This document shows positions 16,085-39,707 of a stretch of DNA of 44,097 nt, in pieces. Every line of letters starts with the position of its first letter. Positions within the stretch are counted from its first letter, which is position 1. This DNA is from an uncultured Dehalococcoidales bacterium (GTDB lineage: Bacteria; Chloroflexota; Dehalococcoidia; E44-bin15). The translations under genes and the position numbers were made by a program. The stretch is taken from the NCBI GenBank assembly GCA_964583545.1, contig CAZOVW010000002.1, positions 1 through 44,097 on the forward strand. Reading direction: 5' to 3'. Below the pieces are notes generated by a model. The model ran no database searches and was not told where the DNA came from. It saw only the letters and a program-made list of their open reading frames with translations.

Positions 16085-16107
16085 CTGGGGCCCCCTGCAA
16101 GCCGAAA

Positions 16108-17514: not shown

Positions 17515-17532
17515 CAGCAACCTTCCCTCTTC

Positions 17533-18918: not shown

Positions 18919-18939
18919 AGTTAGGCCCTATAGAGAGAC

Positions 18940-18965: not shown

Positions 18966-19037
18966 AATTATGTGGACCTTCGATTCTTTGGTGAAATGAG
19001 GTGGAATAATGTATTTCGGTTCGCTGACATCTAATGG

Positions 19038-19289: not shown

Positions 19290-19307
19290 ATGTTTCTTAG
19301 CCCTCTA

Positions 19308-20546: not shown

Positions 20547-20594
20547 CTTGGCAACTACCTTAATTGTATCCTTGCCCGAAGGGCAAGGATCGCG

Positions 20595-21644: not shown

Positions 21645-21764
21645 CGAATAACCCCTCTACAGACTCGCTACCATGTCAGGAACATAGCTCCCGGTTTCTA
21701 CAGCGACATATTGGCATCACATGGCACATCACAACGGTTAGAAGCTCTAAAGGAAAATGTTGTA

Positions 21765-22178: not shown

Positions 22179-22240
22179 AGCTTTCCCTCCTGCTCGAATA
22201 TACTGCAACTAGTGGAATATAGTAATCTATGCGATGTATA

Positions 22241-22270
22241 ATTATCACATCTTAAAGGCATGCTTGTCAA
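22241..22270 (-). promoter_or_regulatory. Candidate internal promoter ahead of the small protein / thiolase / KS / ACP genes
   Basis: On the minus strand: TTGACA (22265-22270), 18-nt spacer, TGtGATAAT (GATAAT at 22241-22246). Confidence 0.4.
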
Positions 22271-22325
22271 CGACAGATCGCTTGCCTGTCCTTTACTTTC
22301 AAGGTGAGTATCTCAAGAAGTGCGC

Positions 22326-23642
22326 CTAATTTTTGAGCCAAAAGTGGGTCTTATCAAATTCTTTCGATCGGTATCGCTCCCATCTTGGAAAAATCTCTTG
22401 GTAGATCCCAAGCCTTATCCCAATTAACTTTATAGCTCTCAGAAGTAGCATTCTAAGCATCCTTGGCTTACTAAGAAGTGCTTTCATCAGCACAAGAAGG
22501 GTTCTAGTCAGTGTAGGTGAGCATCCCTCTATTTTGGTGGCGTTCTGTAAGCTCTTATTACTTCTGATTGCACAGTCGCCGTAAAGAAAGACTTTTTTCG
22601 TATCTCTTTCTGGCCTTAATTCCAGCCCATAATATAACTCCACACCGCCAAAATCCATTTTAGGATTATCTTTGGCAAGTATTGATAGCGCTAAAGCGAG
22701 CGTGGCACCACAAGCTGAACAAAGGCTCTGTCCTGGAGGGGGAGCTGAAAGTCCTGTAACTTTTGCTGGGGTCAATAATTCTTTATCTGGTTCAAACTGC
22801 CACTCAAGCTGCTCCTTTAGAGATTCTATATCTTCTCCTTTGATTTGGATCGTGCTGATATCTAAAGATCGATTATGCCTTTCGGCAAATTCTCTCAGAT
22901 AGTCAACTTGTGACGGATCGATCCCCAGTATTGTTGCCCCAACAATATCGCACTCGAATATATCTGGGCTTGCTATAATCAAATCCTTGCGGTGGGCCAC
23001 CCCCACGAGAGTTTCTGGCCCTTTTCCCAACATGTATATTCCATCAATTATGACCAAGTCACTCTTGATTGCTTCGTTCAAAAGGCAAATTAGAGAATCT
23101 AGTCGGTTGGTAATATGAAACCTTTTTTTTGAAGCTTGGCTGAGGCAACCCTTCAGATTCTTGAAACCCAGAGAGACCTTTGTTTGGAAGTGGGTTTTTA
23201 GTACTGGGACATTGATTAGAAAGTCTGCCTCTAAAGCTGTTTTGGAAACCTGGACTTTTACCCCTCCTAAATCTAGCTCCTGAAAAGGACCCTGGTTGAA
23301 ATCGATCAGTTTAGCCCCGTATTTTTCAGCCACCTTGTCTATACCTGTCCCCTTAAAACCTCGTTTCGTATACGGCTCAAGTTCATCAAATATACCAATG
23401 ATGGCACCTTCACCTATAGAAATATCTTTGCAGCCATATTCGAGCAATAATTGTATGATTCCGTCTATGATCTTTGAGGTGGTCACCATTCCATAGGGAG
23501 GCATTATTTCGTGGCGGAAACAGTTATTGGGTTTTATCAGGATTTCGTCATTCCTATTGAGTTTCTCAAATCCATCACATAGTTTAATGGCGCGTCGAAT
23601 AGAATCAAGAGACCCATCAAATCTCACTAGCGATACTGTCAT
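22326..23642 (-). CDS. DUF362-domain protein with a C-terminal extension
   Basis: 438 aa. N-terminal ...ILIKPNN...MVTTSKIIDGIIQLLLEYGCKDISIGEG pattern typical of DUF362 (PF04015). C-terminal 130 aa contain Cys motifs (CSACG; YGDCAI; EGCSP) and a basic/hydrophobic tail. Confidence 0.5.
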   Translation of the reverse strand: MTVSLVRFDGSLDSIRRAIKLCDGFEKLNRNDEILIKPNNCFRHEIMPPYGMVTTSKIIDGIIQLLLEYGCKDISIGEGAIIGIFDELEPYTKRGFKGTGIDKVAEKYGAKLIDFNQGPFQELDLGGVKVQVSKTALEADFLINVPVLKTHFQTKVSLGFKNLKGCLSQASKKRFHITNRLDSLICLLNEAIKSDLVIIDGIYMLGKGPETLVGVAHRKDLIIASPDIFECDIVGATILGIDPSQVDYLREFAERHNRSLDISTIQIKGEDIESLKEQLEWQFEPDKELLTPAKVTGLSAPPPGQSLCSACGATLALALSILAKDNPKMDFGGVELYYGLELRPERDTKKVFLYGDCAIRSNKSLQNATKIEGCSPTLTRTLLVLMKALLSKPRMLRMLLLRAIKLIGIRLGIYQEIFPRWERYRSKEFDKTHFWLKN

Positions 23643-23686
23643 TATTCGCCCCCCAACCAGCCGAGGCTCAGAGGGAACATTGCTCG

Positions 23687-25045
23687 CTACTCCCTGACCA
23701 ACGGGTAGTTTCTTATTTCTTCGAGGTATGAGTCCAGAAAACTCTGAGCCTTTTCCCTGGAGAAGAGGCCGGTTCTATAGCCCAGGCAGACCTGCAACCT
23801 GCCGCTGTAGGTGTATGTCCCCAGGCTCAGCCCCATGGGGGTAACCAGTGGCGGGGCGGTTTCCATGTTCACTATCTTGGCGCTGCCGATTCGGAGCTCT
23901 CCCCATTCTTCGGGCCAGACCACGCCTACATTACTAACGAAAGTGGTATCAACATATATTCGAGTAATCATCAAGAACCTGCACATTGCTCTCATAACGA
24001 CCTGGGGAAAGCGAGAACAAAAGTAATAGAAATAAACCAGGGAGTATTGGATGCCATCCTTGACTATTGAGGCCATATCCACCCTCACCTTATGTAGCAG
24101 CTTTACCGGGTCAGCCCTATCTTCGGGCATGGTCGGTAGGGAAACCCAGGCTACCTGGTTTGAAACCACATCCTTAGGCCCCCTGGGCCCGATGAATGTG
24201 GGAACCATTAGGCGTATACATTTGCTACCTTTGCCGTGCAGGCTGTTCCATCTCTCAATAACCCTGAAGCAGGCTGCCAGCAGGACATCATTCAGGGTAA
24301 CACGAGCTGCCTTTGCTCTTGACCGAATTTGCCCAAACTCTGCTGGGTCTATGGTCCTATTGCAGTAGTCGGTTCCCTTTGACCGCTCTGACCTGTCGTG
24401 GAAGATCCTTGTCGGTGGGTGGAAAGGTGCTATGAAGAATCGATGGAAAAGGCTATAGATCATTTTCATATAGTAGTGCTCTACGCTTGGCCTTTGGCTG
24501 CGTGCAAATTGTAGTATTTCATCCCCTTTACGGGATATGGGGAAATCATCGAGGGACTTAGAGTCTTCAGGAACGTCCTTATCGTAACTTTCAAAGATCT
24601 TCCGGATGAAAAGAACGGCGCCGAGCCCATCCACTGCAATGTGATGACCAGTGAAAATCAGTGAAGATTCAACCTCATTCTTTTTTAAGAGAAGGGCTCT
24701 AAATGGGAATTCCTTCCATAGGTTCAGGGGTTGGTTTATCCATTCAGAAAGGCACCTCTCATAGTTTGCATCTGGGAGTTTGGCCAGGTCTTTGACAGTC
24801 AGAGCTTTCTCTCCGAGGTCTTCCTGTACTTCTTGGAAAGTCCTGAAATACTTACTTCGCAGGATTGTTCTCATTTGGGGATGAGCTTTTAGGGCGGATA
24901 GGATTGCTCGATTCAACCTATCGGCATCTATTTCTCCTTCGATGTTCAGGATTTGGTGGGCAATCATAGGCTCGTTTATGCTGTCAAGAGCTAGTAGACA
25001 CTTGCTAACGCAATTCAGAGGCATTCGAACGTTGGAATTTCCCAT
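23687..25045 (-). CDS. HHxxxDG acyltransferase (condensation / WS-DGAT / PapA5 superfamily), paralogue A
   Basis: 452 aa. Catalytic motif GHHIAVDGLG at about residue 134; N-terminal IEGEIDADRLNRAILSALKAHPQMRTIL resembles C-domain motifs C1-C2. GGGAGG RBS. Confidence 0.7.
   Translation of the reverse strand: MGNSNVRMPLNCVSKCLLALDSINEPMIAHQILNIEGEIDADRLNRAILSALKAHPQMRTILRSKYFRTFQEVQEDLGEKALTVKDLAKLPDANYERCLSEWINQPLNLWKEFPFRALLLKKNEVESSLIFTGHHIAVDGLGAVLFIRKIFESYDKDVPEDSKSLDDFPISRKGDEILQFARSQRPSVEHYYMKMIYSLFHRFFIAPFHPPTRIFHDRSERSKGTDYCNRTIDPAEFGQIRSRAKAARVTLNDVLLAACFRVIERWNSLHGKGSKCIRLMVPTFIGPRGPKDVVSNQVAWVSLPTMPEDRADPVKLLHKVRVDMASIVKDGIQYSLVYFYYFCSRFPQVVMRAMCRFLMITRIYVDTTFVSNVGVVWPEEWGELRIGSAKIVNMETAPPLVTPMGLSLGTYTYSGRLQVCLGYRTGLFSREKAQSFLDSYLEEIRNYPLVRE
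24545..24987 (-). repeat. Identical block shared with 28416-28858 (inside paralogue A)
   Basis: Line-by-line comparison at offset 3871 shows no mismatch across about 443 nt. Identity drops on both sides. Confidence 0.85.
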
Positions 25046-25074
25046 TATTATCCTCCCTTCTTTTTGATTGCCTC

Positions 25075-26631
25075 TTAATTGACCTGACGCTCCTGTCCCT
25101 CCCAGTACTTCTTGCGCAGTTCAGCCTTCAGTACTTTGCCTGCGAGGTTCTTTGGTAGGAGTTCCACGAACTCGACTGACTTGGGTTTCTTGTATGATGC
25201 CAGGTTTTCCTTACAGCCCCGGATAATCTCTTCTTCGCTCGCCTTCATTCCCGGCTTCAGTTTCACAAAGGCTTTTATAGACTCCCCCCACACCTCGTCA
25301 GGGATGCCGATAACCGCCGTCTCAAGTACAGCCGGGTGCTTAAAGATAGCATTCTCCACTTCCATGGGATACACGTTATAGCCTCCAGTGATAATCATGT
25401 CCGTTTTACGGTCAGCTATAAATAAGTATCTTTCCTCATCGAGATACCCCATATCCCCCGTAAAAAGCCACCCATCTCTTATCGCTTTCTGAGTTGCTTC
25501 CGGGTCTTTCCAGTACTCCTTCATCACCAATGGGCTGCGGACGATGATTTCTCCTTTCTCTCCTGTCGGGACATCATTTCCGTCATCATCCACCACGCGT
25601 ATATTGGTCATGACGAGCTCGCGTCCCGCTGACCCTAACCGACGAGTTTGCTCATCAGTGCCTCCGATTACGTGATCATCCACGCTCAGCGAGGTTATAA
25701 AGAAGCACTCCACCAAACCATAGGCCTGGATGAACACATCTCCGAAAACATCCAGTGCCTGTTTCAACTTCTCCACAGCCATGGGTGCGGAGGAATAAGG
25801 GAGTCTCCTCAGAGTGCTGAGGTCATAATTCTTGAGGTTAGGGTAGGCGAGGAGGAAATAGATGATAGTGGGTGCCAGCCATACCGTGGTGACTTTTTCC
25901 TTTTGAATTGTATCCAGAGCGAAATCGATGTCGAGGTGGCTGATGAGGATGTTGGGCACCCCCATCATGAAATGGGGTGGGAGGAGAACGCCCGAGGCGT
26001 GGTTTATGGAGGCGACGTAGAGGGCCACATCGTCGGGTTGGACATTTGTTTCAATACAGTACATATAGGTGGCCATTATAAGGGCCCTATGCGTTTGCAC
26101 ACAGCCCTTGGCCTTGCCGGTGGTGCCCGAAGTATGGAGGATGGCAATAGGGTCGTTCTCATCGATTTCCACTCGCGTGGGTTTGTCGCTTGCTTTGTCC
26201 ATAAGGTCCTCATACCTCTCCATACCAGAGAAGCCCTCGCCATCTACTATGAAGTGCTCCACAGTCTCGATCTTATCTTTCACAGAGTCTATGCCTTCGG
26301 CGAACTTCTGCTGGATGATAAGGGCTCGGGACTCCGCGTTGTTAAGATGGTAGGCATGCTCCAAGGGGTGATGACGGGAATCTAAAGGTGCCCATACCAT
26401 GCCGTTCTTGATCAGTCCATACTGGGCTTCTACGGCCATCAGAGAATTTTCTGCCAGTATCGAGACACGGTCGCCTTTCTTAAGGCCAAGACCGTGTAGG
26501 ACATTGCCTATCTTGTTTACCTGCTTCTCCAACTCCCGGTAGGTCACCCGGCGGTCAGCGTGGACTACTGCTACCCGGTCAGGATAATTCATAAACCCTC
26601 TTTTTACCAGACTCCACAAATCCATTTTCAT
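25075..26631 (-). CDS. AMP-forming acyl-CoA/acyl-ACP ligase (ANL superfamily, FadD-like)
   Basis: 518 aa. A3 motif LHTSGTTGKAKG and TGD/GYxxxxDR core (FTGDMGYLDEERYLFIADRKTDMI). Confidence 0.85.
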   Translation of the reverse strand: MKMDLWSLVKRGFMNYPDRVAVVHADRRVTYRELEKQVNKIGNVLHGLGLKKGDRVSILAENSLMAVEAQYGLIKNGMVWAPLDSRHHPLEHAYHLNNAESRALIIQQKFAEGIDSVKDKIETVEHFIVDGEGFSGMERYEDLMDKASDKPTRVEIDENDPIAILHTSGTTGKAKGCVQTHRALIMATYMYCIETNVQPDDVALYVASINHASGVLLPPHFMMGVPNILISHLDIDFALDTIQKEKVTTVWLAPTIIYFLLAYPNLKNYDLSTLRRLPYSSAPMAVEKLKQALDVFGDVFIQAYGLVECFFITSLSVDDHVIGGTDEQTRRLGSAGRELVMTNIRVVDDDGNDVPTGEKGEIIVRSPLVMKEYWKDPEATQKAIRDGWLFTGDMGYLDEERYLFIADRKTDMIITGGYNVYPMEVENAIFKHPAVLETAVIGIPDEVWGESIKAFVKLKPGMKASEEEIIRGCKENLASYKKPKSVEFVELLPKNLAGKVLKAELRKKYWEGQERQVN

Positions 26632-26637
26632 GTCTCC

Positions 26638-27429
26638 TTACATCATGCTGAAACCGCCGCTAACGCTAAGGGTCTGACCTGTGATGAAGTTCGCGGCGTC
26701 TGAGGCTAGGAATACTACTGCGTTAGCCACTTCCTCCGGTTTCACCAGGCGGCCCATGGGGTACTGGCTAATTGCCTTCTCCTTCATCTCTGGAGGTATC
26801 ATGTCGAGAGTCACGCCGGCCCACGCGCTGGTTTTACTCACCGTCCCAGGTTTCTCAGGGATGGTAAGTCCAGGGCAGACAGTATTGACGGTTATGCCAA
26901 ATCTTCCCATCTCCCGCGCTATAGCTTTCCCGAAAGCGATGGCAGCTCCCTTCGTCCCCGAATAAACCGCTCCTCTTGACTGACCCATCCGACCAGCATC
27001 AGAGGAAATGTTCACAATCCTGCCAGCCTTACGCTCGATCATGTGATCCAAAACAGCCCTGGTGCAATTGATCACGCCCAGGTAATTGATCTTGATCTCC
27101 TTCTCATATTCCTCCCTGGGCTCCTCCATGAACAGCTTGTTGGCTACCCAGCCTGCGTTATTGACCAAGATGTCTATATTTCCAAACATTTCCAGAGTCT
27201 TTTTTACCATCGCTTCTACGGAATCATAATCTGTTACATCCGTCTTAATGGCGAGGGCTTTTCCACCCAGGGCTTCAGCTTCCTTGACCACCTTTTGTGC
27301 CTGTTCCTCATCAAGATTAGCGATCACCACATTAGACTTCTCTCTGGCGAAAGCCAGAGTTATGGCACGACCAATATTTGAGTCTCCCCCGGTAACGATA
27401 ATCGTCTTACCTTCCAGCCCTAACTCCAT
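26638..27429 (-). CDS. Classical short-chain dehydrogenase/reductase
   Basis: 263 aa. TGGDSNIG, NNAG and YSGTKGA motifs. Its stop lies 7 nt upstream of the ligase ATG. Confidence 0.8.
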   Translation of the reverse strand: MELGLEGKTIIVTGGDSNIGRAITLAFAREKSNVVIANLDEEQAQKVVKEAEALGGKALAIKTDVTDYDSVEAMVKKTLEMFGNIDILVNNAGWVANKLFMEEPREEYEKEIKINYLGVINCTRAVLDHMIERKAGRIVNISSDAGRMGQSRGAVYSGTKGAAIAFGKAIAREMGRFGITVNTVCPGLTIPEKPGTVSKTSAWAGVTLDMIPPEMKEKAISQYPMGRLVKPEEVANAVVFLASDAANFITGQTLSVSGGFSMM

Positions 27430-27551
27430 TCATTTGACCCCTAAATATGGTGGAATTTGAACATCTTCACAAAACAGCAACCCTTGTCGCAAATATAGTA
27501 TGGAAAACCCACTTTTCAGTAGAATAATTATCAGACAAACCGGCGGTTATT

Positions 27552-28928
27552 TCAACACTCCCTGACCACGGGGTAGTTTCTTATCTCTTCAACATATAGG
27601 TCTAAAAACCTCTGAGCCTTTTCCCTGGAGAAGAGGCCGGTTCTATAGCCCAGGCAGACCTGCAACCTGCCGTTGTAGACGGATGTCACCAGGGTCATCG
27701 GCAGGAGGGACCCAACAGGTGGAACGCCCTCTATGCCCACTATCCTGGCGCTGCCGATTCGGAGCTCTTCTCTCCATGCTTCGGGCCAGATCACGCCTAG
27801 GTTACTAACGACAATGGTATCAACATATATTCGAGTAATCATAAAGAACCTGGCCATTCCTCTCATAACCACCAGAGGAAAGCGAGAGAGGAGGTAAGCG
27901 AGGTAAAGTTGGGAGAAGGGGATTCCATTCTTGACCATTGAGGCCATATTCGCCCTCACCTTATGTAGCAGCTTTACTGGATCGGCCCTATCTTTGGGCA
28001 TGGTCGGTAGGGAAATCCCGGATACCTGGTTTGAAACCACATCCTTAGGCCACTTGGGCCCGATGAATAGGGGAGTCCATATGCGTATACATTTGCTGCG
28101 TTTGCCGTGCAGGCTGTTCCATCTCTCAATAACCCTGAAGCAGGCTGCCAGCAGGACATCGTTCAGGGTAACGCGGGCTGCCTTCGCTCTTGACCGAATT
28201 TGCCCAAACTCTGCTGGGTCTATGGTACCATTGCAGTAGCCGGTTCCCTCTGACTGCCCCGACCTGTCGTGGAAGATCCTTCTCGTTGGGTGAAAAGGCG
28301 CTATGAAGAATCGATGGAAAAGGCTGTAGATCATTTTCATATAGTAGTGCTCCACGCTTGGCCTTTGGCTGCGTGCAAATTGCAGTATTTCATCCCCTTT
28401 ACGGGATATGGGGATATCATCGAGGGACTTAGAGTCTTCAGGAACGTCCTTATCGTAACTTTCAAAGATCTTCCGGATGAAAAGAACGGCGCCGAGCCCA
28501 TCCACTGCAATGTGATGACCAGTGAAAATCAGTGAAGATTCAACCTCATTCTTTTTTAAGAGAAGGGCTCTAAATGGGAATTCCTTCCATAGGTTCAGGG
28601 GTTGGTTTATCCATTCAGAAAGGCACCTCTCATAGTTTGCATCTGGGAGTTTGGCCAGGTCTTTGACAGTCAGAGCTTTCTCTCCGAGGTCTTCCTGTAC
28701 TTCTTGGAAAGTCCTGAAATACTTACTTCGCAGGATTGTTCTCATTTGGGGATGAGCTTTTAGGGCGGATAGGATTGCTCGATTCAACCTATCGGCATCT
28801 ATTTCTCCTTCGATGTTCAGGATTTGGTGGGCAATCATAGGCTCGTTTATGCTGTCAACAGCTAATATACCCTTCTCAATGGAATTCAGAGGCATTGACC
28901 TGCCGGGCCTTTTCACTTTTCTTTGCAT
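27552..28928 (-). CDS. HHxxxDG acyltransferase, paralogue B
   Basis: Same GHHIAVDGLG motif. The N-terminal half is almost identical to paralogue A and the C-terminal half diverges. Start is uncertain: ATG 28928 or ATG 28895 (MPLNS..., matching A). The track ORF start at 29006 overlaps the SRPBCC gene. Confidence 0.7.
   Translation of the reverse strand: MQRKVKRPGRSMPLNSIEKGILAVDSINEPMIAHQILNIEGEIDADRLNRAILSALKAHPQMRTILRSKYFRTFQEVQEDLGEKALTVKDLAKLPDANYERCLSEWINQPLNLWKEFPFRALLLKKNEVESSLIFTGHHIAVDGLGAVLFIRKIFESYDKDVPEDSKSLDDIPISRKGDEILQFARSQRPSVEHYYMKMIYSLFHRFFIAPFHPTRRIFHDRSGQSEGTGYCNGTIDPAEFGQIRSRAKAARVTLNDVLLAACFRVIERWNSLHGKRSKCIRIWTPLFIGPKWPKDVVSNQVSGISLPTMPKDRADPVKLLHKVRANMASMVKNGIPFSQLYLAYLLSRFPLVVMRGMARFFMITRIYVDTIVVSNLGVIWPEAWREELRIGSARIVGIEGVPPVGSLLPMTLVTSVYNGRLQVCLGYRTGLFSREKAQRFLDLYVEEIRNYPVVREC
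28416..28858 (-). repeat. Identical block shared with 24545-24987 (inside paralogue B)
   Basis: See the feature at 24545-24987. Confidence 0.85.
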
Positions 28929-29344
28929 AGCGATCGCTCGATCCTCGTTTTTGCTGCTGGCGCAATCTTGTCTGAGATTGCTTGACCACCTCGGTATGCC
29001 AGCCATGCCAGGGGCCCTGAGACCTCGCCGCCTATAGTGACCCTCGTTTTGCCATTTACAGGTTCCAGAGTATAGAAGCGTGTTAACTTGGTGCCTAAGG
29101 CTTTTCCTTGCATGACCACGGCGCGTTGTGGGACGAATTCGGTGATAGTCATCACCAACTTAACTCTGATCCTGCTTACCTTAAGTGTCACAGAAAGTTG
29201 TGAGCCTACTGTCAAAGGCCCCTCGGGGACTCTCTCAATCTTCTTAATGGACGGTATCCATTCGGACCACTCTTCAAGATTATCAACTAACGTCCAGACC
29301 TTCTCTAGAGGAGCATTGATCTCAACACTGCTGCTAAACCTCAT
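28913..29344 (-). CDS. SRPBCC (polyketide cyclase/START-like) family protein
   Basis: MRFSSSVEINAPLEKVWTLVDNLEEWSEWIPS... is a typical SRPBCC N-terminus. Start set at ATG 29344 (GAGGGGG RBS) rather than track TTG 29410. Confidence 0.65.
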   Translation of the reverse strand: MRFSSSVEINAPLEKVWTLVDNLEEWSEWIPSIKKIERVPEGPLTVGSQLSVTLKVSRIRVKLVMTITEFVPQRAVVMQGKALGTKLTRFYTLEPVNGKTRVTIGGEVSGPLAWLAYRGGQAISDKIAPAAKTRIERSLCKEK

Positions 29345-29543
29345 ACCTACCCCCTCGCTCCTAACCTCAAGCTTGGTGCTGATGATATGCTCATGGTGTC
29401 TAGCTATCAAGCTCGCTGGCGGCTAGGGCTTTGGTGGCGCGGCACCCAAGTCTGAAAAGGAGCCTGACGAGCAGCTTGTCATGAGGACAGATAGCTACCT
29501 TCATCGTAGCACGGGATAGGCCAGAAATCAAGGTTTGGGCGAG

Positions 29544-31601: not shown

Positions 31602-32399
31602 CTAGCTGAAGCGTTCCGCAAAAATGCACTTTTCCACGATATTGCGAACTGCAACAAGTCCGGGTGAGTCGGGGAGTTCCGTTATCGGCTTACCAATCAA
31701 GTCGTAGTAGGCGATGTTCTCATCATGGGGGATATAACCAAGTACCTCCAGGCCCATTTTCTGGGCGGCTTGCTTAAGTAGTTCCTCGCTGCCCTGCACT
31801 CTATTAAAGACCAGACCTAGCTTTTCACACTGTATCACCCTCTCGCTTTGCGCCATCCTCTTTATCTGGGCTGCGGTTTGTATGCCTCTAGATGTGGCGT
31901 CGGTAACAATAATCAGGGTGTCGACACGGCCCATGACCTGCCTATTTATCTGTTCCAGGCCGGCCTCTCCGTCAATGAGGATAGTATCAAAGCTCTGGGA
32001 GAGGGTCTCTATCGCCTCGCGCAGCAGGGCATTGACCGGGCAAAAGCAGCCTAGTGTTTCGGTACGCCCCATGGCCAGCAGGGCGAAGCCGTCCATCTCA
32101 TTAAGGGCCTCCAGAACCATATAGTCAAGCATGTCAGCTAACTGGCGCTTTTCTTCCTGCTTGCCTCCTTTGGCGGTCTTTATTATCTCCTCGCGGATCT
32201 GGCCCATGGTTCTCCCGACGTTTACGCCAAGGGCGTGGGACAGGCCCATGGCCGGATCGGCGTCAATCAGCAGTAGCTTGCTTGCCTTGCCACTATCCAG
32301 AAGGACTCTGGTTATCATAGCCGTGAGCACGGTTTTCCCCGTGCCACCTTTGCCACATACAGCGACCAACCTCTTGCTCGAGGTAAAAGATTCAGACAT
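31602..32399 (-). CDS. CooC/AcsF-type (MinD/ParA-fold) metal-insertion ATPase-like protein
   Basis: 265 aa. Deviant Walker A CGKGGTGKT and a CXC motif (LGCFCP) at the position of the metal-binding CXC of CooC-type Ni chaperones. Confidence 0.7.
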   Translation of the reverse strand: MSESFTSSKRLVAVCGKGGTGKTVLTAMITRVLLDSGKASKLLLIDADPAMGLSHALGVNVGRTMGQIREEIIKTAKGGKQEEKRQLADMLDYMVLEALNEMDGFALLAMGRTETLGCFCPVNALLREAIETLSQSFDTILIDGEAGLEQINRQVMGRVDTLIIVTDATSRGIQTAAQIKRMAQSERVIQCEKLGLVFNRVQGSEELLKQAAQKMGLEVLGYIPHDENIAYYDLIGKPITELPDSPGLVAVRNIVEKCIFAERFS

Positions 32400-32429
32400 C
32401 AGTACTTTCTCTTAAGCAGAATTTATAAA

Positions 32430-33221
32430 CTATGATTTAGCAGCGACTTTAGCCTTGCCGGTCTTTTTCTTGCGCACGGTGACCACTTCCCTAATTTCGT
32501 CGCACACCGGCTTATAGTCGCAGGACCGGCAATCCCAGCCCAGGGTGCACTCAATGTCAAAGCCTTTGGCCTTCCAGACTTCCTTGGTGATGTTCCTGGA
32601 TATCTCCCGAACCTGCGTGCCAATGTCATCCAGAAGTTGCAGGTCTTCTTTGCTCGAGGTGACAAAAACAATTTCCATCGCCTCTATTTTGGGCACCTCT
32701 GATTTGAAGGTGGCCATCAGCGCTCTTCCCAGGGTCTCAAAGCAAAAACCCTTCGCCGCAGCGTCACTGCTCACCCTGCTCCACATGCACTGAGGTATGC
32801 TCCTGATCATGTACCCTTCTATCTGGTCGGCGATGTATAGGTTAGCTTGCAGCGCTTCATGATCTTTCTCGCCGAGGCCTGTTCCCCCCACCATCAAGAC
32901 CTGACCGAATGGCAGGCTGGCCCCCGGCGATTCGGGGATATCAGGGCCGATCAGGGTAATCTTGCCATCGCTGATCAGAGACGGGTTGTCTGTCCACAGG
33001 AGAAAGGCGCAGGAACCGGCGTTGGGGTTGCCCAGCTCGATGAAGGTATCTCCCCGCAGTATTATGCCTGAGCTAGCCTGGGGGCCAACCCGAACAGGCA
33101 GTCCTTCCACCAGTTCGCTGACCGCCGCGGGACAATCGATTTCCTTGACCTGCCTCCCCTTTTCACGCATTTCCAGGCCGTATTCAGTCAGCTTCTTAAC
33201 ATACACATCGAAGATCGCCAT
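32430..33221 (-). CDS. Truncated acetyl-CoA synthase-like protein (CdhC N-terminal / AcsB middle domain only) with a C-terminal CX5CX2CX5C motif
   Basis: 263 aa. By eye, ...GDTFIELGNPN...DGKITLIGPDIPESPGASLPFG...MWSRVSSDAAAKGFCFETLGRALMATFKSEVPKIEAMEIVFVT... aligns with remembered M. thermoacetica AcsB (...DGKIEVIGPDIDQIPEGSKLPLG...WLRVSKDAVAKGFRFKNYGEILVAKMKEEFPAIVDRVQVTIFT...). It ends at ECTLGWDCRSCDYKPVC, roughly where the ACS A-cluster domain begins. Confidence 0.65.
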   Translation of the reverse strand: MAIFDVYVKKLTEYGLEMREKGRQVKEIDCPAAVSELVEGLPVRVGPQASSGIILRGDTFIELGNPNAGSCAFLLWTDNPSLISDGKITLIGPDIPESPGASLPFGQVLMVGGTGLGEKDHEALQANLYIADQIEGYMIRSIPQCMWSRVSSDAAAKGFCFETLGRALMATFKSEVPKIEAMEIVFVTSSKEDLQLLDDIGTQVREISRNITKEVWKAKGFDIECTLGWDCRSCDYKPVCDEIREVVTVRKKKTGKAKVAAKS

Positions 33222-33291
33222 AATCTGTTTGCTCCTGAGGAGATTGAGTTTCGTCAGAGTTTGTCGTAGCCTGCCCGATGAGGGAACTGGC

Positions 33292-34080
33292 TCAGGGTCG
33301 ACTGTTCAGTTTCTCCCTGGCGATGAGTGCCGCCCCTATTGCTCCAGCGATTTGGGGGTCCTGGGGCAACTTCTTCACACTAACCCCCAGTTTCTCCTCC
33401 AATGCCTTGGCCAGGCCCTCGTTCTTGGCACATCCGCCGGTCAGCGCCACGTCTTCGACAAGGCCAACCTTTCTTACCATGGAATTCAACCTGCCCGCTA
33501 TCGAGTTATGCAGGCCGGCAGCAATATCGGCGAGTTCAACGCCCTCATTAATAAGGGTTATAACCTCGGACTCAGCAAACACGCTACACTGGCTGGTAAT
33601 AGTAGCAGGGTTCTTCGACTGGAGAGATAGCGATGAAAGCCCTTCAAGCCCACAGTCGAGTGCCCTGGCCATTGCCTCGAAAAACCGCCCCGTCCCCGCA
33701 GCACACCTGTCGTTCATCACAAACTCGATAACGTTGCCCTTTTCGTCTATGGACATCACCTTGCAGTCCTGCCCCCCGATGTCAACCACCGTTCTCACCG
33801 TGGGACAAAGCCAGTGAGCACCCCGGGCATGACACGTTATCTCCGAAACATTTTCGTTGGCGAAAGGCACCTTGAGCCTGCCGTAGCCGGTGCCTACAAT
33901 GTAGTCCACCTCGTCCAGTGAGAAGATGCCGAGATAACCCAAGGCTTCATCCATCACACGGCGCGCCGTCAACTCAGGCTTGGTGGTGGACGGGATAATG
34001 ATGTATGAGGCGATCTCCCCATCCTTCATGACGACAGCCTTACCGGTAGCAGAACCTACATCACAGCCTCCGACAATCAC
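33292..34080 (-). CDS. ATP-dependent activase of the 2-hydroxyacyl-CoA dehydratase/benzoyl-CoA reductase family (BcrAD/BadFG/HgdC-like)
   Basis: Start reassigned to GTG 34080 (GGAAAGGAAAG RBS, 25 nt after the upstream stop), giving MIVGGCDVGSATGKAVV. Cluster-bridging Cys contexts NDRCAAGTGRFFE and SQCSVFAESEV are present. The track ORF (to 34230) overlaps the upstream gene. Confidence 0.85.
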   Translation of the reverse strand: MIVGGCDVGSATGKAVVMKDGEIASYIIIPSTTKPELTARRVMDEALGYLGIFSLDEVDYIVGTGYGRLKVPFANENVSEITCHARGAHWLCPTVRTVVDIGGQDCKVMSIDEKGNVIEFVMNDRCAAGTGRFFEAMARALDCGLEGLSSLSLQSKNPATITSQCSVFAESEVITLINEGVELADIAAGLHNSIAGRLNSMVRKVGLVEDVALTGGCAKNEGLAKALEEKLGVSVKKLPQDPQIAGAIGAALIAREKLNSRP

Positions 34081-34105
34081 GATCTTTCCTTTCCCTGCTG
34101 TTATC

Positions 34106-35398
34106 TTACTTCTGGCCCAGGCCGTGCACGCTGAAGAACTTGGAGAGTTTGTCCTTGACCGTGTCCACCCCCGAGTACCTCTTGTCGAACAGGTCGAGAC
34201 CGATGTGCAAGAAAGGTACCCCGATCTCACGGCACTTCTCCCTCATCATGCCTACGTTTGCAGACCCATCCTTGTGGCCCATGTGACCCGGCCAGATAAC
34301 GCAATCTACCTTGTAGTCTTTGACTATTCGCGATATATCGCTGAGGAAGTTATCCGCCACACCGCGCGCCTGCCTGATCATCGGCATCTCAGTCAGGGCC
34401 CTCTTAGCCAGGCCCATGAACATGGTGTCCTCGTTTTTGGTGTCTATCGGCTCGTAAGGGGTGTAGCCGAACATATTCATGACGAAGTTCACTCCCCACT
34501 CCGCCTCCAGCCACGGTTGGATATCCCATTGCCAGAGTAGCGGCAGGATGTCGAACCAGAGTGCTCGGATCCTCTCCCCGCCCGGTACCCCGCTTACCCC
34601 CGCCTTCACCCGCTTCTCGGCGTTGGCAACGAGCTTCTTGAACCATTCGGTGCCCTCGGGAACACCGGGATAGTAGTACGTAGCTATAGCGAAGCACTGC
34701 GGCGGACCGATGGTCCAGTCGTGCGGGCACGGCACCACCCGCCTCAGGTCATTGTATTCCTGCCACAGCGCATATTCCTTGTTGGACTCCTCACATACCT
34801 CCCGCAGACGGTCTATGTCCAGCGTATACCCAGTGTGCTCAGTGATAAACTCCACCATCCGCTTAAGTTCCTTAACATAGTACTCGAAGCTCCGATCATC
34901 TTCCCAGTAGGGCGGGTCAGCGGCGAAGATCGGAACATCACGCCACTTGCCGTGCTTGATTGCCTGGTGGACCACTGTCGTGCCGTCGCAGGGATGAAGC
35001 AGGCTGATAAGCGCAGTCGGCTTTGGACTAACATCAGCCTCTACATAGTACGCTGCCAGCCTGAGGACGGTGCACAGATCGCTGCCGAGCATGCCCTCGG
35101 CTCCATCGATATCCTGGTCTAGCAGCGGTGCTGAAACCCCCAGGAACGGTGTCTGCAAGAAAATCCACCACGGGCAATCCATAGCGGTATATATCTCCGG
35201 TGCGCAGCAGAAGTAGCTGGCAATGTAAGGTTTGCCCTCCTCGACGCAACCTACTATCTCGTCATACTTGTTCATAACTGTCTTTATAACAAACCGGTTG
35301 ATGTCTCCTTCCTCCGATGTATCTAGCGCAAGCGCATCGTGGAGACCCTGAAGAAAAGCTTTATCATCCACTAACCGTTGCAATTCCTTTTTAACCAT
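34106..35398 (-). CDS. 2-hydroxyacyl-CoA dehydratase/BcrC-BadD-HgdB family protein, alpha-like paralogue 2
   Basis: 430 aa. HGD-D-type family features (YFCCAPEIY, LHPCDGT, VPCPHDW, VIWPGHMGHKDG). Paralogue of 35500-36789. Confidence 0.75.
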   Translation of the reverse strand: MVKKELQRLVDDKAFLQGLHDALALDTSEEGDINRFVIKTVMNKYDEIVGCVEEGKPYIASYFCCAPEIYTAMDCPWWIFLQTPFLGVSAPLLDQDIDGAEGMLGSDLCTVLRLAAYYVEADVSPKPTALISLLHPCDGTTVVHQAIKHGKWRDVPIFAADPPYWEDDRSFEYYVKELKRMVEFITEHTGYTLDIDRLREVCEESNKEYALWQEYNDLRRVVPCPHDWTIGPPQCFAIATYYYPGVPEGTEWFKKLVANAEKRVKAGVSGVPGGERIRALWFDILPLLWQWDIQPWLEAEWGVNFVMNMFGYTPYEPIDTKNEDTMFMGLAKRALTEMPMIRQARGVADNFLSDISRIVKDYKVDCVIWPGHMGHKDGSANVGMMREKCREIGVPFLHIGLDLFDKRYSGVDTVKDKLSKFFSVHGLGQK

Positions 35399-35455
35399 TG
35401 TTTACCTCCCTATGCTTTCCAGGAATGTCTGGGCCCTGGTTCCTAACTGCGCTGT
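35399..35455 (-). repeat. Relic copy of the 3' end of the beta-like gene, left by tandem duplication
   Basis: 35396-35455 (cattgtttacctccctatgctttccaggaatgtctgggccctggttcctaact) aligns with 36787-36845 (catcgtctaccttcccatgctttccaagaatgcctgggccctggttctcacct). The latter spans the stop and last codons of the 382-aa gene. Confidence 0.75.
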
Positions 35456-35499
35456 CCAAGCGTTATTCCAGTCTCCTTACCTTTTTTGTCATCGATTAC

Positions 35500-36789
35500 T
35501 CACTTCTGGCCCAGGCCGTGCGCGCTGAAGAACTGGGAGAACCTGTCTTTGACCTCGTCCGGAGAGGTATACCTATTGTCGAAGAGGTCAAGCCCGATGT
35601 GGAGGAATGGTACCCCCATCTCGCGACACTTCTCCCTCATCATGCCAATGTTTGCCGATCCATCCTTATGGCCCATATGGCCCGGCCAGATGACGCAATC
35701 TATCTTGTAGTCCTTGACTATTCGCTCTATATCGTCGAGGAAGTGATCCGCCACACCGCGCGCCTGCCTCACCATCGGCACGTCAAACAAAGCCCGCTTA
35801 GCCAGGCCTTTGAACATGGCGTCCTCACTTGAGGTGTCAATCAGCGTGTATGGCGTATAGCCGAACATGTCCATAACCATGACCCCTCCCCACTCCTCCT
35901 CCAACCACGGAAAGATGTCAAGGCTCAGCGCTAAAGACACAACATCGAACCACAGTAACCTGATCCTCTCCTTCGGCACCTTGCTCTTCTTCTGTCGGAC
36001 TAGCTCCTCGGCGTCGGCAATGAGATCCCTGATCCAGGCAGTGCCTACGGGATCACCCACTAATAAGGTCTGCACTACACCGAACGTCTGTATTCCGAAG
36101 CCGAAGCCGTGGGGACATGGCACCGCCCGTCTCAGGTCGTTGTATTCCTGCCACAGCGCGTATTGCTTGTTGGACTCCCCTATAACCTCCCGCAGTCTAT
36201 CCATATCCAGTTTGTGCCCGGTGTGCTCCTCGAGGAATGATACCATCCGCTTAAGTTCAACAGCATAGTAATCTACACTTCGCTCATCCTCCCAATAGGG
36301 TGGGTCACAGGCGAACATCGGAACGTTACGCCAGTTTTCGCTTTGCGCGATTATTTGGTGCAGCACCGTTGTACCGTCGCAGGGGTGAAGTAGAGCGATG
36401 ACCGCAGTTGGTAGTGGAGCAAGGTCTTCCGCTATATAGTATCCGGCTATCCTGAGGATGGTGCACAGGTCCTTTCCGAACAGTTTCTCGCTCCCATCAA
36501 TCTCGTCTGGTAGAGTGGGCGTTACAGCCCCGGTGAACGCGGGGGTCAAAAAGGTGTACCAGGGGAGTTCCATGGCGGTGTATAGCTCCGGTGCACAAGC
36601 GAAGTAGCTGGCGATGAATGGCTTGCCCTCCTCAACACACCTTATTATTTCGTTGTGGTGGTCAACAAAGGCCTTGGTCGGAACCATATAGAGCTTGCTA
36701 TCCGGTGTTGGAGACTGCGTAAACGTCTCCACCATAATGTGGAGCGTATCGCGCTCCTGGATAAACCTTTCCAATCTCTTTTCAGTCAT
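35500..36789 (-). CDS. 2-hydroxyacyl-CoA dehydratase/BcrC-BadD-HgdB family protein, alpha-like paralogue 1
   Basis: 429 aa. Same motifs (YFACAPELY, LHPCDGT, VPCPHGF, VIWPGHMGHKDG). The C-terminal 90 aa are nearly identical to the paralogue. Confidence 0.75.
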   Translation of the reverse strand: MTEKRLERFIQERDTLHIMVETFTQSPTPDSKLYMVPTKAFVDHHNEIIRCVEEGKPFIASYFACAPELYTAMELPWYTFLTPAFTGAVTPTLPDEIDGSEKLFGKDLCTILRIAGYYIAEDLAPLPTAVIALLHPCDGTTVLHQIIAQSENWRNVPMFACDPPYWEDERSVDYYAVELKRMVSFLEEHTGHKLDMDRLREVIGESNKQYALWQEYNDLRRAVPCPHGFGFGIQTFGVVQTLLVGDPVGTAWIRDLIADAEELVRQKKSKVPKERIRLLWFDVVSLALSLDIFPWLEEEWGGVMVMDMFGYTPYTLIDTSSEDAMFKGLAKRALFDVPMVRQARGVADHFLDDIERIVKDYKIDCVIWPGHMGHKDGSANIGMMREKCREMGVPFLHIGLDLFDNRYTSPDEVKDRFSQFFSAHGLGQK

Positions 36790-36792
36790 CGT

Positions 36793-37941
36793 CTACCTTC
36801 CCATGCTTTCCAAGAATGCCTGGGCCCTGGTTCTCACCTGGCCGACGATGCCAGCCAGAAGGTATTCCCTGTCCAGTTTGAGGAAGGGGATACCTGCCTC
36901 CTTCAAGTCTTTGTCGAGCATGAAATTCTCAACGGTCCACAGGTCACAGAAGATCATCCGCAGGCCGATAACCCCATCCACCTTGAAATCCCTGACCATG
37001 TCCCTGACGAACTGGGACCTTCGCGGTTGAGCATCGAACATCCGTGGGCAGGCGGGTTTTTCCATGATATAGTACCGCGCCAGGGCGGTAAGCGGATCTT
37101 TCTTCCTCTCATCGACATCTTTCCAGAAAATCCTGGTGCCAAAGCAAAGCGAATCGGTGACCACAAGGCCACCCTGTTCCTCAACGACTTTAATGAAGGC
37201 CGGGTCATCGAGTATGGCGCCCACCAGCATCAATCTCGCCCGGTAACCCTTGATGCCCTCCGCCTGGCTTAATTCATCCAGCAGCTCGGTAAGCATTTTG
37301 TTGTACTGCTCCCTGGGCATAGCCGTGCTGGCTACGACGACAGCCATCGCTTCAGTGCCGGTAATCGGCGGGTTTTCCTTCTTCCTGAGGTCATAAAGCT
37401 TGCGCAGCAGGTGTCTCGTCTCATTGTGGGTCTTTATCGCCCCCCGCAGCTTATCATCGGTGATCGTTATGCCGAGATGCTTCTCCAGCGCTTCCTTGAA
37501 TATTGCCAGCTCGTCCCGCCACCATTCCACCTGCACCTCGGTGGTCTTCTTGGGGAGGCTCATCATGTGCGTGAAGGGGGTCCCCACCTTGCGCTTCCAG
37601 TTGTCGTAGATGCGGCGGACGTGGTCGCAGTTGTTGAGCCAGACAGCCCCCTCAATGAAATCATACTCTCCCAGGAGCCCCATATTGAAGGCATGACGGC
37701 AGAAACTGCAATTGATGCTGCTCAAATACGCATCTGCCAGCTCCGTTCCCGTGCTGCCAGTGGCCCTCACTCGCATGGGGACCAGGCCAGCAGCGGTGAT
37801 GATCTCCTCCGGCCCGTAGGAACAGAAGTAACCCACCACCTTGCCCCCCTGCTCTATCCATTTCTTCAATTTAGGGTTAAGGATGGTCTCGGCGGCTGTG
37901 GTGAATTCCTCTAATGCCGGCGACTTTACCTTTGTCTCCAA
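36793..37941 (-). CDS. 2-hydroxyacyl-CoA dehydratase/BcrC-BadD-HgdB family protein, beta-like subunit
   Basis: 382 aa. ...GYFCSYGPEEII...SINCSFCRH...TDSLCFGTR... TTG start at 37941 with a GGGGG about 8 nt upstream; no in-frame ATG is nearby. Confidence 0.7.
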   Translation of the reverse strand: METKVKSPALEEFTTAAETILNPKLKKWIEQGGKVVGYFCSYGPEEIITAAGLVPMRVRATGSTGTELADAYLSSINCSFCRHAFNMGLLGEYDFIEGAVWLNNCDHVRRIYDNWKRKVGTPFTHMMSLPKKTTEVQVEWWRDELAIFKEALEKHLGITITDDKLRGAIKTHNETRHLLRKLYDLRKKENPPITGTEAMAVVVASTAMPREQYNKMLTELLDELSQAEGIKGYRARLMLVGAILDDPAFIKVVEEQGGLVVTDSLCFGTRIFWKDVDERKKDPLTALARYYIMEKPACPRMFDAQPRRSQFVRDMVRDFKVDGVIGLRMIFCDLWTVENFMLDKDLKEAGIPFLKLDREYLLAGIVGQVRTRAQAFLESMGR

Positions 37942-38015: not shown

Positions 38016-38043
38016 AGTTTACACAAAACATTCCGTGTGTCAA
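38016..38043 (-). promoter_or_regulatory. Candidate promoter of the dehydratase-family operon
   Basis: On the minus strand: TTGACA (38038-38043), 16-nt spacer, TAAACT (38016-38021). A second candidate is TTGACT (38107-38112), 17 nt, TAGACT (38084-38089). Confidence 0.3.
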
Positions 38044-38435: not shown

Positions 38436-39707
38436 GTGCCAGCGCAGGGGAGAGGGTTTTTCTACGGTTGGGTAGTTGTGGTGGGCGCCTGGCTGGCGAT
38501 GTTTGTTAGTTCGGCGACCATTGCCTCCTTCTCCATATTCGCTCCGGAACTGGAGGAAGCATTCGGTTGGACGAGGGGGATGCTCTCCCTGGGCTACACC
38601 CTTAATACGATTACGATAGCAGTATTCGGGCTGGTGGCGGGGATGCTGGCCGATCGAGTCGGGCTGAGAAAGCTCGTGTTCATCGGCGCCGTTGTCGGGG
38701 GGCTGGGGATGGCCCTGTTGAGCCAGATAACCCAAATCTGGCACTTCTACCTCCTCTATGGGGTCATCGCCCCCTCGGGGGTCGCATTATGTTTTATTGT
38801 TCCTACAGTGGCCACGGTGAGGAGGTGGTTTATGCGGAGGGCTGCCTTGGCAGTAGCTATCGCCATGACCGGCTCGGGGCTGGGGGTGGTGATTCTATTG
38901 CCATTGGTTCACCGCCTCATGGTGGCTATTGGCTGGAGCGATAGCTACATCGCCCTCGGGCTCATCATGGTGGTCGGCACCATCATTGGGGGGGCACTTT
39001 TGAAGAAAGAGCCGGAGTCGGCGGGAACCTATCCCGATGGCGTCAAGCCTGCGGCTGAGGAGCTTGAGGCCAGGGCTGACTTTCTTGCCCGCTCCGAGAG
39101 GTGGTCGGTGAGGGAGGCCTTCCGCACCTCTAGCTGGTGGCTCCTCATACTTTCCCAGTTCTATAATATCGCGATCATCGGGATTATCGGCCACATCGTT
39201 TTCTGGGGCAGCGACCTGGGAATACCCCGGGGGGATGCGGTGATCATCCTGAGCCTTTTTGTGCTGGCAGCGGTGGCGGGCAGGCTTTTCGGGGGCTTTT
39301 TCTCCGATTGGTATATGGCCAGATTCGGTATCTCCCGGAAGCCCGTCTTATATGTTTGCACCATTGGCGTCGCCCTGGGGTGCTTTCTGGCTATGGGGGT
39401 TGATACCAAAACAGGGCTTCTTTTGGTTTCCCTGCTTATCGGATTCTGCTATGGAATCGGCCTCTCGGTATTCCCCACATACCTGGGAGATCTGTTCGGG
39501 GTGGTTAGTGTGCCGGCGCTTTTTGGCACCGTGTTGCTGTTCGCTGCAGGGCTATTTGAGTCAATCGGTCCTGTGTTATTCGGATTCATCCACGAGGCCA
39601 CGCGATCTTACGATCTAGCCTTCTTGGTCACGGCGATACTGTGCCTCATCTCAACGGTATCCCTGTTCCTGATCAGGGCGCCGGCGAGGAGGAATAAAGG
39701 GGCTTGA
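38436..39707 (+). CDS. MFS transporter, oxalate/formate antiporter (OFA)/monocarboxylate-like
   Basis: 423 aa with about 12 hydrophobic segments. N-terminus ...FFYGWVVVVGAWLAMF... is typical of OFA-type MFS. GTG start with GAGGAA upstream. Confidence 0.7.
   Translation: MPAQGRGFFYGWVVVVGAWLAMFVSSATIASFSIFAPELEEAFGWTRGMLSLGYTLNTITIAVFGLVAGMLADRVGLRKLVFIGAVVGGLGMALLSQITQIWHFYLLYGVIAPSGVALCFIVPTVATVRRWFMRRAALAVAIAMTGSGLGVVILLPLVHRLMVAIGWSDSYIALGLIMVVGTIIGGALLKKEPESAGTYPDGVKPAAEELEARADFLARSERWSVREAFRTSSWWLLILSQFYNIAIIGIIGHIVFWGSDLGIPRGDAVIILSLFVLAAVAGRLFGGFFSDWYMARFGISRKPVLYVCTIGVALGCFLAMGVDTKTGLLLVSLLIGFCYGIGLSVFPTYLGDLFGVVSVPALFGTVLLFAAGLFESIGPVLFGFIHEATRSYDLAFLVTAILCLISTVSLFLIRAPARRNKGA

Follow-up and report, generated by a model that had tools for sequence, protein, structure and literature searches.

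Enzymes of the benzoyl-CoA reductase (BCR), 2-hydroxyacyl-CoA dehydratase (HAD) and double-cubane-cluster protein (DCCP) family carry out some of the most reducing chemistry in biology, and to our knowledge only three functional types of this family are understood. In a 44,097-nucleotide stretch of DNA from an uncultured Dehalococcoidales bacterium (contig CAZOVW010000002.1 of assembly GCA_964583545.1; the whole stretch is called the window below), six co-directional open reading frames (ORFs) on the minus strand, at 31602–37941, place the subunits and the ATP-dependent activase of such an enzyme next to a fragment of acetyl-CoA synthase (ACS), here termed the mini-ACS, and a CooC-type ATPase. 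The question raised by this locus is what the last two proteins do beside an enzyme of this kind. With moderate confidence, we propose that the cluster encodes an ATP-dependent acyl-CoA reductase of the BCR/HAD/DCCP family, accompanied by its own accessory module of two genes, in which the CooC-like ATPase would mature the mini-ACS.

Results

Gene cluster

The cluster comprises the following features, in order of transcription.

38016–38043, minus strand: candidate operon promoter, TTGACA-16-TAAACT, sigma-70-like (10/12 matches in a consensus scan, a pattern match only)
36793–37941, minus strand: beta subunit, 382 aa, BzdN/HadC/DCCP-like HGD-D protein (PF06050, 338 bits)
35500–36789, minus strand: alpha paralogue 1 (alpha1), 429 aa, BzdO/MbdO/HadB fold (PF06050, 171 bits)
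35399–35445, minus strand: 47-nt apparent relic of the beta 3' end and the beta/alpha junction (~85% identity to 36790–36836)
34106–35398, minus strand: alpha paralogue 2 (alpha2), 430 aa (PF06050, 164 bits)
33292–34080, minus strand: single HgdC/HadI-type activase ("archerase"), probably 262 aa (PF01869, 205 bits; TIGR00241, 269 bits)
32430–33221, minus strand: mini-ACS, 263 aa (PF03598, 67 bits, residues 41–191)
32502–32549, minus strand: codons of the mini-ACS Cys motif, C225-x5-C231-x2-C234-x5-C240, a putative Fe-S or metal site
31602–32399, minus strand: CooC/AcsF-type SIMIBI P-loop ATPase, 265 aa (CooC1 3kje, 54.6 bits)

A preliminary description of this DNA, made from its letters and ORF translations, had recognized a tandem array of six minus-strand genes with gaps of 3–101 nt, and the ORF calls agree: the gaps are 3, 101, 25, 70 and 30 nt when the activase start is taken as GTG 34080. 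The six family assignments of that description also held in the profile searches, which returned HGD-D for three proteins and BcrAD_BadFG, CdhC and a CbiA/MinD-type P-loop domain for the other three. Neither the names given by the sources nor the cluster look-ups provided an annotation for the window proteins. The candidate promoter lies ~75 nt upstream of the beta start codon. An RNA element upstream of the operon, such as a metal-sensing riboswitch, was considered and rejected, as all riboswitch and RNA families stayed below threshold in an Rfam scan of the whole window.

Beta subunit with a complete double-cubane ligand set

The best solved relative of the 382-aa protein is BzdN of the Aromatoleum benzoyl-CoA reductase (8s02_B, 188 bits), followed by HadC and DCCP, which is consistent with its earlier description as beta-like. 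Mapping of its Cys residues on the double-cubane pattern showed that C40/C78/C105/C266/C298/C332 align one-to-one with Cys36/73/100/263/293/327 of BzdN, the ligands of the [8Fe-9S] double cubane (PMC11971306), so that the full six-Cys set is present. None of the six varies among 26 close and 32 distant orthologues (58/58). The double cubane of BzdN has been argued to accumulate at least two electrons, and it has been lost in the dehydratases (PMC11971306). All NCBIfam equivalog cut-offs were missed by the beta subunit (bzdN, 199 against 454; HadC, 174 against 700), and it scored 228 bits with the DCCP model NF040772, for which the cut-off is 350. The preliminary description had not mentioned the six-Cys signature, and it had also missed the Cys-to-His replacement in the alphas and the C-terminal Cys motif of the mini-ACS that are described below.

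Alpha paralogues with a substituted cluster ligand

The two alphas share 60% protein identity and are far diverged from solved proteins, the best single-sequence match being DCCP with 43 bits. Profile searches reached BzdO, DCCP, HadB and MbdO, and equivalog cut-offs were again missed (bzdO, 28 against 449; HadB, 34 against 750). The AlphaFold model of alpha1 has a predicted local distance difference test score (pLDDT) of 87, and the top Foldseek matches of the alpha model were MbdO, BzdO and HadB, with template-modelling (TM) scores of 0.74–0.78, compared with 0.64–0.66 for N/beta subunits. Profiles and fold thus uphold the earlier assignment of both ~430-aa proteins as alpha-like. The model contains a four-helix bundle at residues 169–265, and a bundle of this kind lines the CoA channel in BzdO (PMC11971306).

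The first two cluster-ligand positions are occupied by C109 and C137 (Cys95 and Cys128 of BzdO), the second being followed by a "CDG" motif. At the third position, both alphas carry His374 in place of Cys, within the motif WPGHMGHKDG; H371 and C388 are conserved as well. From the alignment with BzdO, C225 and H227 would stand where the helix alongside the pantetheine begins. C388 lies 14 residues along the helix after the ligand position and probably sits far from the cluster.

Tblastn of related loci showed that where only one alpha is encoded, it may be of the alpha1 type or of the alpha2 type. Since either type can be the sole alpha, the two paralogues of the window are probably interchangeable catalytic subunits that share one beta. 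The 47 nt before alpha2 (35399–35445) are ~85% identical to the 47 nt before the alpha1 start (36790–36836), a segment that covers the beta 3' end, the junction and the ribosome-binding site. This similarity looks like the scar of a duplication or insertion of a beta-alpha cassette, from which the second alpha would have come, or like a junction held similar for translational coupling or by recombination. On another Dehalococcoidia contig (L112, DATKYK010000040.1, 9001–10284), an alpha-type HGD-D gene with 54% identity to alpha1 stands alone, beta, activase, mini-ACS and CooC-like genes all being absent within 9 kb, and extra catalytic alpha paralogues may be scattered in such genomes.

Activase

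The best solved relatives of the activase are HadI (4eht, 223 bits) and MbdQ (211 bits), and the alignment shows conservation of its two cluster-Cys motifs, SxxxCHARG and NDxCAAGTG; the bzdQ equivalog was missed (198 against a cut-off of 380). The single HgdC/BcrAD-type activase of the preliminary description is therefore a HadI-type protein, with one gene in the window. The maximal ORF (33292–34230, 312 aa) overlaps alpha2. Translation most likely starts at GTG 34080, which is preceded by GGGAAAGGA and yields 262 aa, the length of the orthologues.

Mini-ACS

The 263-aa protein matches the CdhC profile (cut-off 24 bits) over residues 41–191 only and falls far below the cdhC equivalog (65 against a cut-off of 356). 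Its sequence matches in the PDB are exclusively ACS, covering residues 317–478 of 7zkj_B, with a profile match to 313–482 of 8cjc_B, and all 23 significant Foldseek matches of its AlphaFold model are ACS chains. It had been described as resembling only the CdhC N-terminal domain, which the profile confirms, and by fold it resembles ACS alone. Judged from these alignments, the mini-ACS is the middle (A2, CoA-binding) domain of ACS with a short C-terminal stub that carries an invariant Cys motif. The A1 domain, the body of the A3 domain, the fourth cubane Cys and the Cys-Gly-Cys nickel site are all missing.

After the region of A2 homology, a helix is followed by C225-x5-C231-x2-C234-x5-C240, and the protein ends 23 residues past C240. 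The four Cys are invariant in 26/26 and 43/43 close homologues, and in the distant subfamily only C-x2-C-x5-C is invariant. In ACS, the cubane-binding segment reads C-x2-C-x8-C-x9-C and the Cys-Gly-Cys nickel site follows much further on. The profile alignment places "ECTL" of the mini-ACS on "GC189TL" of Methanosarcina CdhC, which suggests that its Cys motif is equivalent in position to the start of the A-cluster cubane-binding segment. The AlphaFold model has a pLDDT of 70, with residues 219–263 below 50, as would be expected of a tail that folds around a metal.

Acetyl-CoA binds mainly to the A2 domain of ACS; in the enzyme of C. autoethanogenum, Trp405 forms a stack with the adenine, and the acetyl group is in contact with Gly399 (bioRxiv 10.1101/2024.08.05.606187). 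In the mini-ACS, W147 is invariant and aligns with the Trp of the W-x-R-[IV]-S-K motif of ACS, and it probably corresponds to Trp405. An exhaustive profile search collected 700 mini-ACS clusters at 50% identity, 149 of them below 1e-30; nearly all members have 235–290 aa, and many residues are invariant across the family. One member (P0317, 308 aa) keeps C-x2-C-x5-C and bears an additional C-terminal 2x[4Fe-4S] ferredoxin domain, a fusion that, read as a Rosetta stone, may point to a role in electron transfer.

CooC-type ATPase

Relatives of CooC and AcsF are maturation ATPases. The 265-aa protein matches CbiA/MinD-type P-loop profiles (Pfam/NCBIfam), and its best solved relative is CooC1 (3kje), aligned over residues 12–257. 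It has a deviant Walker A motif of the SIMIBI type, GKGGTGKT (residues 16–23), and a CXC motif, C118-F-C120, which is invariant in 24/24 orthologues; the GCFCP that contains it aligns on QCYCR of CooC1, the metal-binding motif. The earlier reading as a CooC-type ATPase with a CXC motif was thus correct. In CooC/AcsF ATPases this motif lies at the dimer interface, and in the solved homologue CooC1 it is a nickel or zinc site. No CODH, corrinoid protein or methyltransferase gene accompanies the mini-ACS/CooC pair, and no CODH is encoded in the window.

Conservation of the operon

A scan with one genome per species found 29 mini-ACS loci, whose hosts are Dehalococcoidia and other Chloroflexota, Myxococcales, Thermodesulfobacteriota, Desulfobacterales and Bacteroidales. 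A metagenome scan seeded by the distant subfamily (a 6-sequence alignment) added 80 loci, giving 109 in total. The loci span Chloroflexota, Actinomycetota, Bacteroidota, Myxococcota, Desulfobacterota and Krumholzibacteriota metagenome-assembled genomes (MAGs), and all hosts of the module are uncultured. In tblastn searches with the window proteins, almost all loci have the gene order beta, alpha (1–3 copies), activase (1–2), mini-ACS and CooC-like gene. HGD-D genes are present in 53/57 mini-ACS loci with at least 4.5 kb of upstream sequence, and a CooC-like gene lies immediately downstream of the mini-ACS in 88/92 loci with at least 1 kb of downstream sequence. A look-up from the alpha side likewise returned a Krumholzibacteriia contig with the same five genes. 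The recurrence of the operon is far beyond chance. The preliminary description would have been undermined by a co-localisation unique to this contig, and its proposed pairing of CdhC-like and CooC-like genes with HGD-D genes is instead conserved across phyla. It had called the operon an orphan; this is right in that no pathway neighbours are found in the window, and wrong in that the operon belongs to a large conserved family.

The pair also occurs without nearby HGD-D genes (L026, L038 and L055). Because the two genes stay together there, the mini-ACS and the CooC-like ATPase appear to be a functional unit.

Two subfamilies were distinguished, between which the mini-ACS shares only 27–40% identity. 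The window-type subfamily has one activase gene, a four-Cys mini-ACS and alphas with H374 and C388. The sister (distant) subfamily, largely from Actinomycetota MAGs including Geothermincolia, has two activase genes resembling BzdPQ, a three-Cys mini-ACS and alphas with C374, within GHHACK (canonical Cys in 53/55), in which position 388 is hydrophobic. An intermediate state, C374 together with C388, is seen in L024 and L029. The beta subunit retains its six Cys in both. Since both subfamilies combine a six-Cys beta with the accessory pair, the pair is tied to the whole enzyme family and not to the His variant. The preliminary description had also noted that neither the canonical dehydratase pattern nor the two-activase pattern of class I BCR is present, which is true of the window but not of the sister subfamily, where two activases are encoded.

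A second beta-alpha pair was seen in L002, L009, L017, L024 and L102, and in L009 it is accompanied by a canonical-Cys alpha and by two more activase genes encoded on the opposite strand; several related enzymes may share one mini-ACS/CooC pair.

Full-text literature searches found no description of a module that combines a BCR-type enzyme with a mini-ACS and a CooC-type ATPase, nor a characterised or annotated function for it, in line with the earlier statement that no such system was known. The names used in public databases are generic or misleading, being only "CO dehydrogenase/acetyl-CoA synthase beta subunit", "2-hydroxyacyl-CoA dehydratase" or "hypothetical".

Discussion

Proposed function

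From homologies, ligand patterns and conserved synteny, all of which were observed directly, we infer the formation of a complex, a reductase activity, an acyl-CoA substrate and a chaperone-client relation. In the model that we propose, the homodimeric HadI-type activase would take up an electron from a low-potential donor, hydrolyze ATP and inject the electron into the beta subunit, whose BzdN-type [8Fe-9S] double cubane would store electrons. These would pass to the alpha cluster, presumably bound by Cys109, Cys137 and, unusually, His374, with either alpha paralogue able to serve, and the cluster would activate an acyl-CoA bound in the channel of the four-helix bundle. The net reaction would be reduction rather than dehydration; a reductase is preferred because the double cubane, which has been lost from the dehydratases, is complete in the beta subunit. 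An acyl-CoA as substrate is supported by the four-helix bundle of alpha together with the CoA-thioester neighbours of related loci, which include family III CoA-transferases (L110 and L116), acyl-CoA dehydrogenases, AMP- and ADP-forming acyl-CoA synthetases and aldehyde:ferredoxin oxidoreductase. The preliminary description had suggested an ATP-driven low-potential reductase or dehydratase with an extra metallocentre-bearing partner, a suggestion that fits all findings and that we, too, can only infer.

The mini-ACS would be an added CoA-binding metallo-subunit, in which an A2 domain with the adenine-stacking Trp is joined to three or four invariant Cys. The CooC-type ATPase, by analogy with AcsF for ACS and CooC for CODH, would be the ATP-dependent metal-insertion chaperone of the mini-ACS. 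Adjacency of the two genes, their persistence as a pair on their own and homology make this chaperone-client relation the best-supported part of the proposed accessory function.

Several observations weigh against the proposal. The positions of BzdO Glu65, His131 and Tyr97, which are catalytic residues there (PMC11971306), hold other residues in the alphas, so the chemistry is not transferable from benzoyl-CoA reductase. As the Cys-Gly-Cys site and the fourth cubane Cys are missing, a true A-cluster is excluded in the mini-ACS, and a nickel site with just three or four Cys is not obviously supported. The correspondence of W147 to Trp405 was derived from residue numbering and motif alignment. 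The activase is absent in L017 and L118 and the CooC-like gene in L017 and L019, which makes a strict obligate coupling doubtful. The Cys-to-His change is confined to the subfamily of the window and thus cannot explain the accessory pair. It was considered as the reason for the CooC-type maturase and rejected, because the sister subfamily with the canonical Cys has the same pair.

Alternative explanations

The likeliest of the alternatives, although we regard it as unlikely, gives both the mini-ACS and the CooC-type ATPase a role in assembly. As a scaffold and its ATPase, they would serve to build, or to repair, an Fe-S centre in alpha/beta, either the double cubane or the cluster in the alpha active site, and would stand outside the working enzyme. 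The maturation role of CooC and AcsF relatives and the occurrence of the pair without adjacent HGD-D genes would suit such a function, and the predicted disorder of the Cys-motif tail resembles a cluster-donating scaffold. A gene for a NifS-type cysteine desulfurase adjoins the pair in L026 and lies in its vicinity in L029, but these are only 2 of ~110 loci. We down-weighted the assembly of the double cubane as the task of the pair because BzdNO (PMC11971306) and DCCP (PMC7317905) acquire [8Fe-9S] clusters in E. coli without dedicated factors. Canonical BCR, HAD and DCCP loci have no such genes, and the retention of a whole CoA-binding A2 domain with an invariant adenine-stacking Trp would be left unexplained.

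Next in rank, and also improbable in our judgement, the mini-ACS may be a dedicated low-potential electron carrier in place of a ferredoxin, passing electrons from one [4Fe-4S] or [3Fe-4S] cluster to the activase; the CooC-like ATPase would load or protect this cluster, with no nickel or CoA chemistry involved. The core cluster encodes no ferredoxin, P0317 carries its fused ferredoxin domain, and the Cys motif stems from the part of ACS that binds the cubane, all of which would agree with a carrier. However, a carrier would not need a CoA-binding domain of ~190 residues conserved across 700 clusters, and ordinary Fe-S carriers need no CooC-type ATPase. The CXC motif, a nickel or zinc site in the solved CooC homologue, also argues against it.

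Also unlikely is a more specific form of the metallo-subunit proposal, in which the CooC-type ATPase would insert nickel into the three- or four-Cys Fe-S site of the mini-ACS, and the resulting heterometallic centre would lie beside a bound CoA thioester and act on it with ATP-boosted electrons. If true, biology would have a further Ni-Fe-S site, the third in kind besides the C-cluster of CODH and the A-cluster of ACS, for example a [Ni-3Fe-4S] cluster or a cubane with Cys-bridged nickel.

It is very improbable that the locus encodes a typical 2-hydroxyacyl-CoA dehydratase or a genuine benzoyl-CoA reductase followed by two unrelated Wood-Ljungdahl remnants, as the source annotations read and as FolD and formate-tetrahydrofolate ligase in the window and MetFV-HdrA genes near the pair in L026 and L117 might suggest. 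No NCBIfam equivalog model reaches its cut-off, and the shortfalls are large; the alphas do not have the catalytic residues of BzdO, and dehydratase betas have no double cubane. The five-gene association (53/57 and 88/92 loci across phyla) is neither chance nor decay, and the mini-ACS family has many invariant residues.

Comparison with known systems

Class I BzdNOPQ of Aromatoleum sp. CIB (8S02; PMC11971306) shares with the proposed acyl-CoA reductase a BzdN-type beta with six [8Fe-9S] ligands. Together with the 3-methylbenzoyl-CoA reductase MbdONPQ (9G87/9GAI), it also shares the alpha fold with a four-helix bundle and an ATP-dependent activase of the same family, and the two activase genes of the sister subfamily resemble BzdPQ. 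In contrast, class I BCR has two different activase subunits (P/Q or A/D), whereas the window has one activase gene; its alpha carries a three-Cys [4Fe-4S]-OH2 cluster with Glu65 and His131, whereas the third ligand here is His; and known benzoyl-CoA reductase loci contain neither mini-ACS nor CooC-type genes.

HadBC/HadI (3O3M, 4EHT) and HgdAB/HgdC are similar in having alpha and beta HGD-D subunits and a single gene for a homodimeric activator, and the family III CoA-transferase that adjoins two related loci is a feature of dehydratase pathways. They differ in their HadC-type beta, which holds a three-Cys [4Fe-4S]/[4Fe-5S] cluster instead of a six-Cys double cubane, and in the absence of a mini-ACS/CooC pair. 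Neither the CoA-transferase nor the 2-hydroxyacid dehydrogenase is found in the window, CoA_transf_3 being present only in L110 and L116.

DCCP and its reductase DCCP-R (6ENO, 7YYL; PMC7317905) share with the present system the six-Cys [8Fe-9S] motif seen in beta, the "CDG" motif seen in alpha and a single activase gene. However, DCCP is a homodimer of identical double-cubane subunits, each with a 6–7-Cys motif, that acts on small-molecule substrates and has no accessory pair, whereas the system described here has a double-cubane beta and a single-cluster alpha with a channel of the CoA-ester type.

With ACS (AcsB/CdhC) and AcsF, and with CODH and CooC, the accessory pair shares the A2 homology, the Trp motif, a Cys motif at the point where the cubane-binding segment begins and the CXC ATPase, as well as the pairing of an ACS-type gene with a CooC-like ATPase gene. 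Unlike ACS, the mini-ACS has no A1 domain, A3 body or Ni-Ni site, and its partner is an enzyme of the benzoyl-CoA reductase type. What is new here is the conserved accessory module on a BCR/HAD/DCCP-family enzyme and, in the subfamily of the window, the His-substituted active-site cluster.

Neighbouring genes

The genes flanking the operon are housekeeping genes, with RecF and DnaN on one side and dCMP deaminase and QueA on the other. One further gene lies close to the operon.

38436–39707, plus strand: major facilitator superfamily (MFS) transporter, monocarboxylate/oxalate-formate type (PF07690, 130 bits)

This divergently transcribed transporter, which scores 202 bits with NF049980 (SfMCT L-lactate transporter; cut-off 320), had been suggested to supply a carboxylate substrate. 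No counterpart was matched by tblastn in the 109 related loci (0/109), and we rejected it as a clue to the substrate.

In L026 (a Desulfobacterales genome, 428–7963) and L117 (a metagenome contig, 6296–9892), the mini-ACS/CooC pair lies within 2–8 kb of HdrA-like, MvhD, MetV and MetF genes, which belong to a methylene-THF reductase complex; in L026, no HGD-D gene is present within 10 kb and the NifS-like gene is directly downstream of the pair. Actinomycetota-type loci (L030–L109) have two conserved helical proteins without Pfam match immediately upstream of beta, of ~430–600 aa in 21 loci and of ~220 aa in 8 (e.g., L095 2019–3503 and L079 1291–1962). They are often preceded by an acyl-CoA dehydrogenase or GMC oxidoreductase gene, and a metallophosphoesterase gene often follows the CooC-like gene in this subfamily.

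Elsewhere in the window, ThyX, FolD, an amidohydrolase and formate-tetrahydrofolate ligase are encoded together on the plus strand (6955–11343), and such methyl-branch C1 genes could tempt annotators to read the mini-ACS as part of a Wood-Ljungdahl pathway. A minus-strand stretch at ~12500–29400 has a GC content of 44–50%, against 55–58% elsewhere, and a lipid/polyketide-like gene set: a FabD-like acyltransferase, a FabA/Z-like protein, KAS I/II, KAS III, short-chain dehydrogenases, two flavin amine-oxidase/phytoene-desaturase-like paralogues, a DUF362 protein, an AMP-ligase, two stand-alone condensation-domain paralogues and a polyketide-cyclase/SRPBCC protein. This stretch may be a horizontally acquired biosynthetic island.

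Implications

The operon represents a large and phylogenetically broad branch of the BCR/HAD/DCCP family in uncultured bacteria, with two extra proteins derived from the ACS system. Its description corrects a common annotation error, as the ~260-aa proteins, under their present label, can wrongly suggest a Wood-Ljungdahl pathway in MAGs of Dehalococcoidia and Actinomycetota. As a small system of five genes, it is amenable to direct testing by anaerobic co-expression. If the pair provides a new metallocentre or CoA-handling subunit, the family would include a new coupling of ATP-boosted electrons to thioester chemistry, and the known clients of CooC-type chaperones would extend beyond CODH and ACS.

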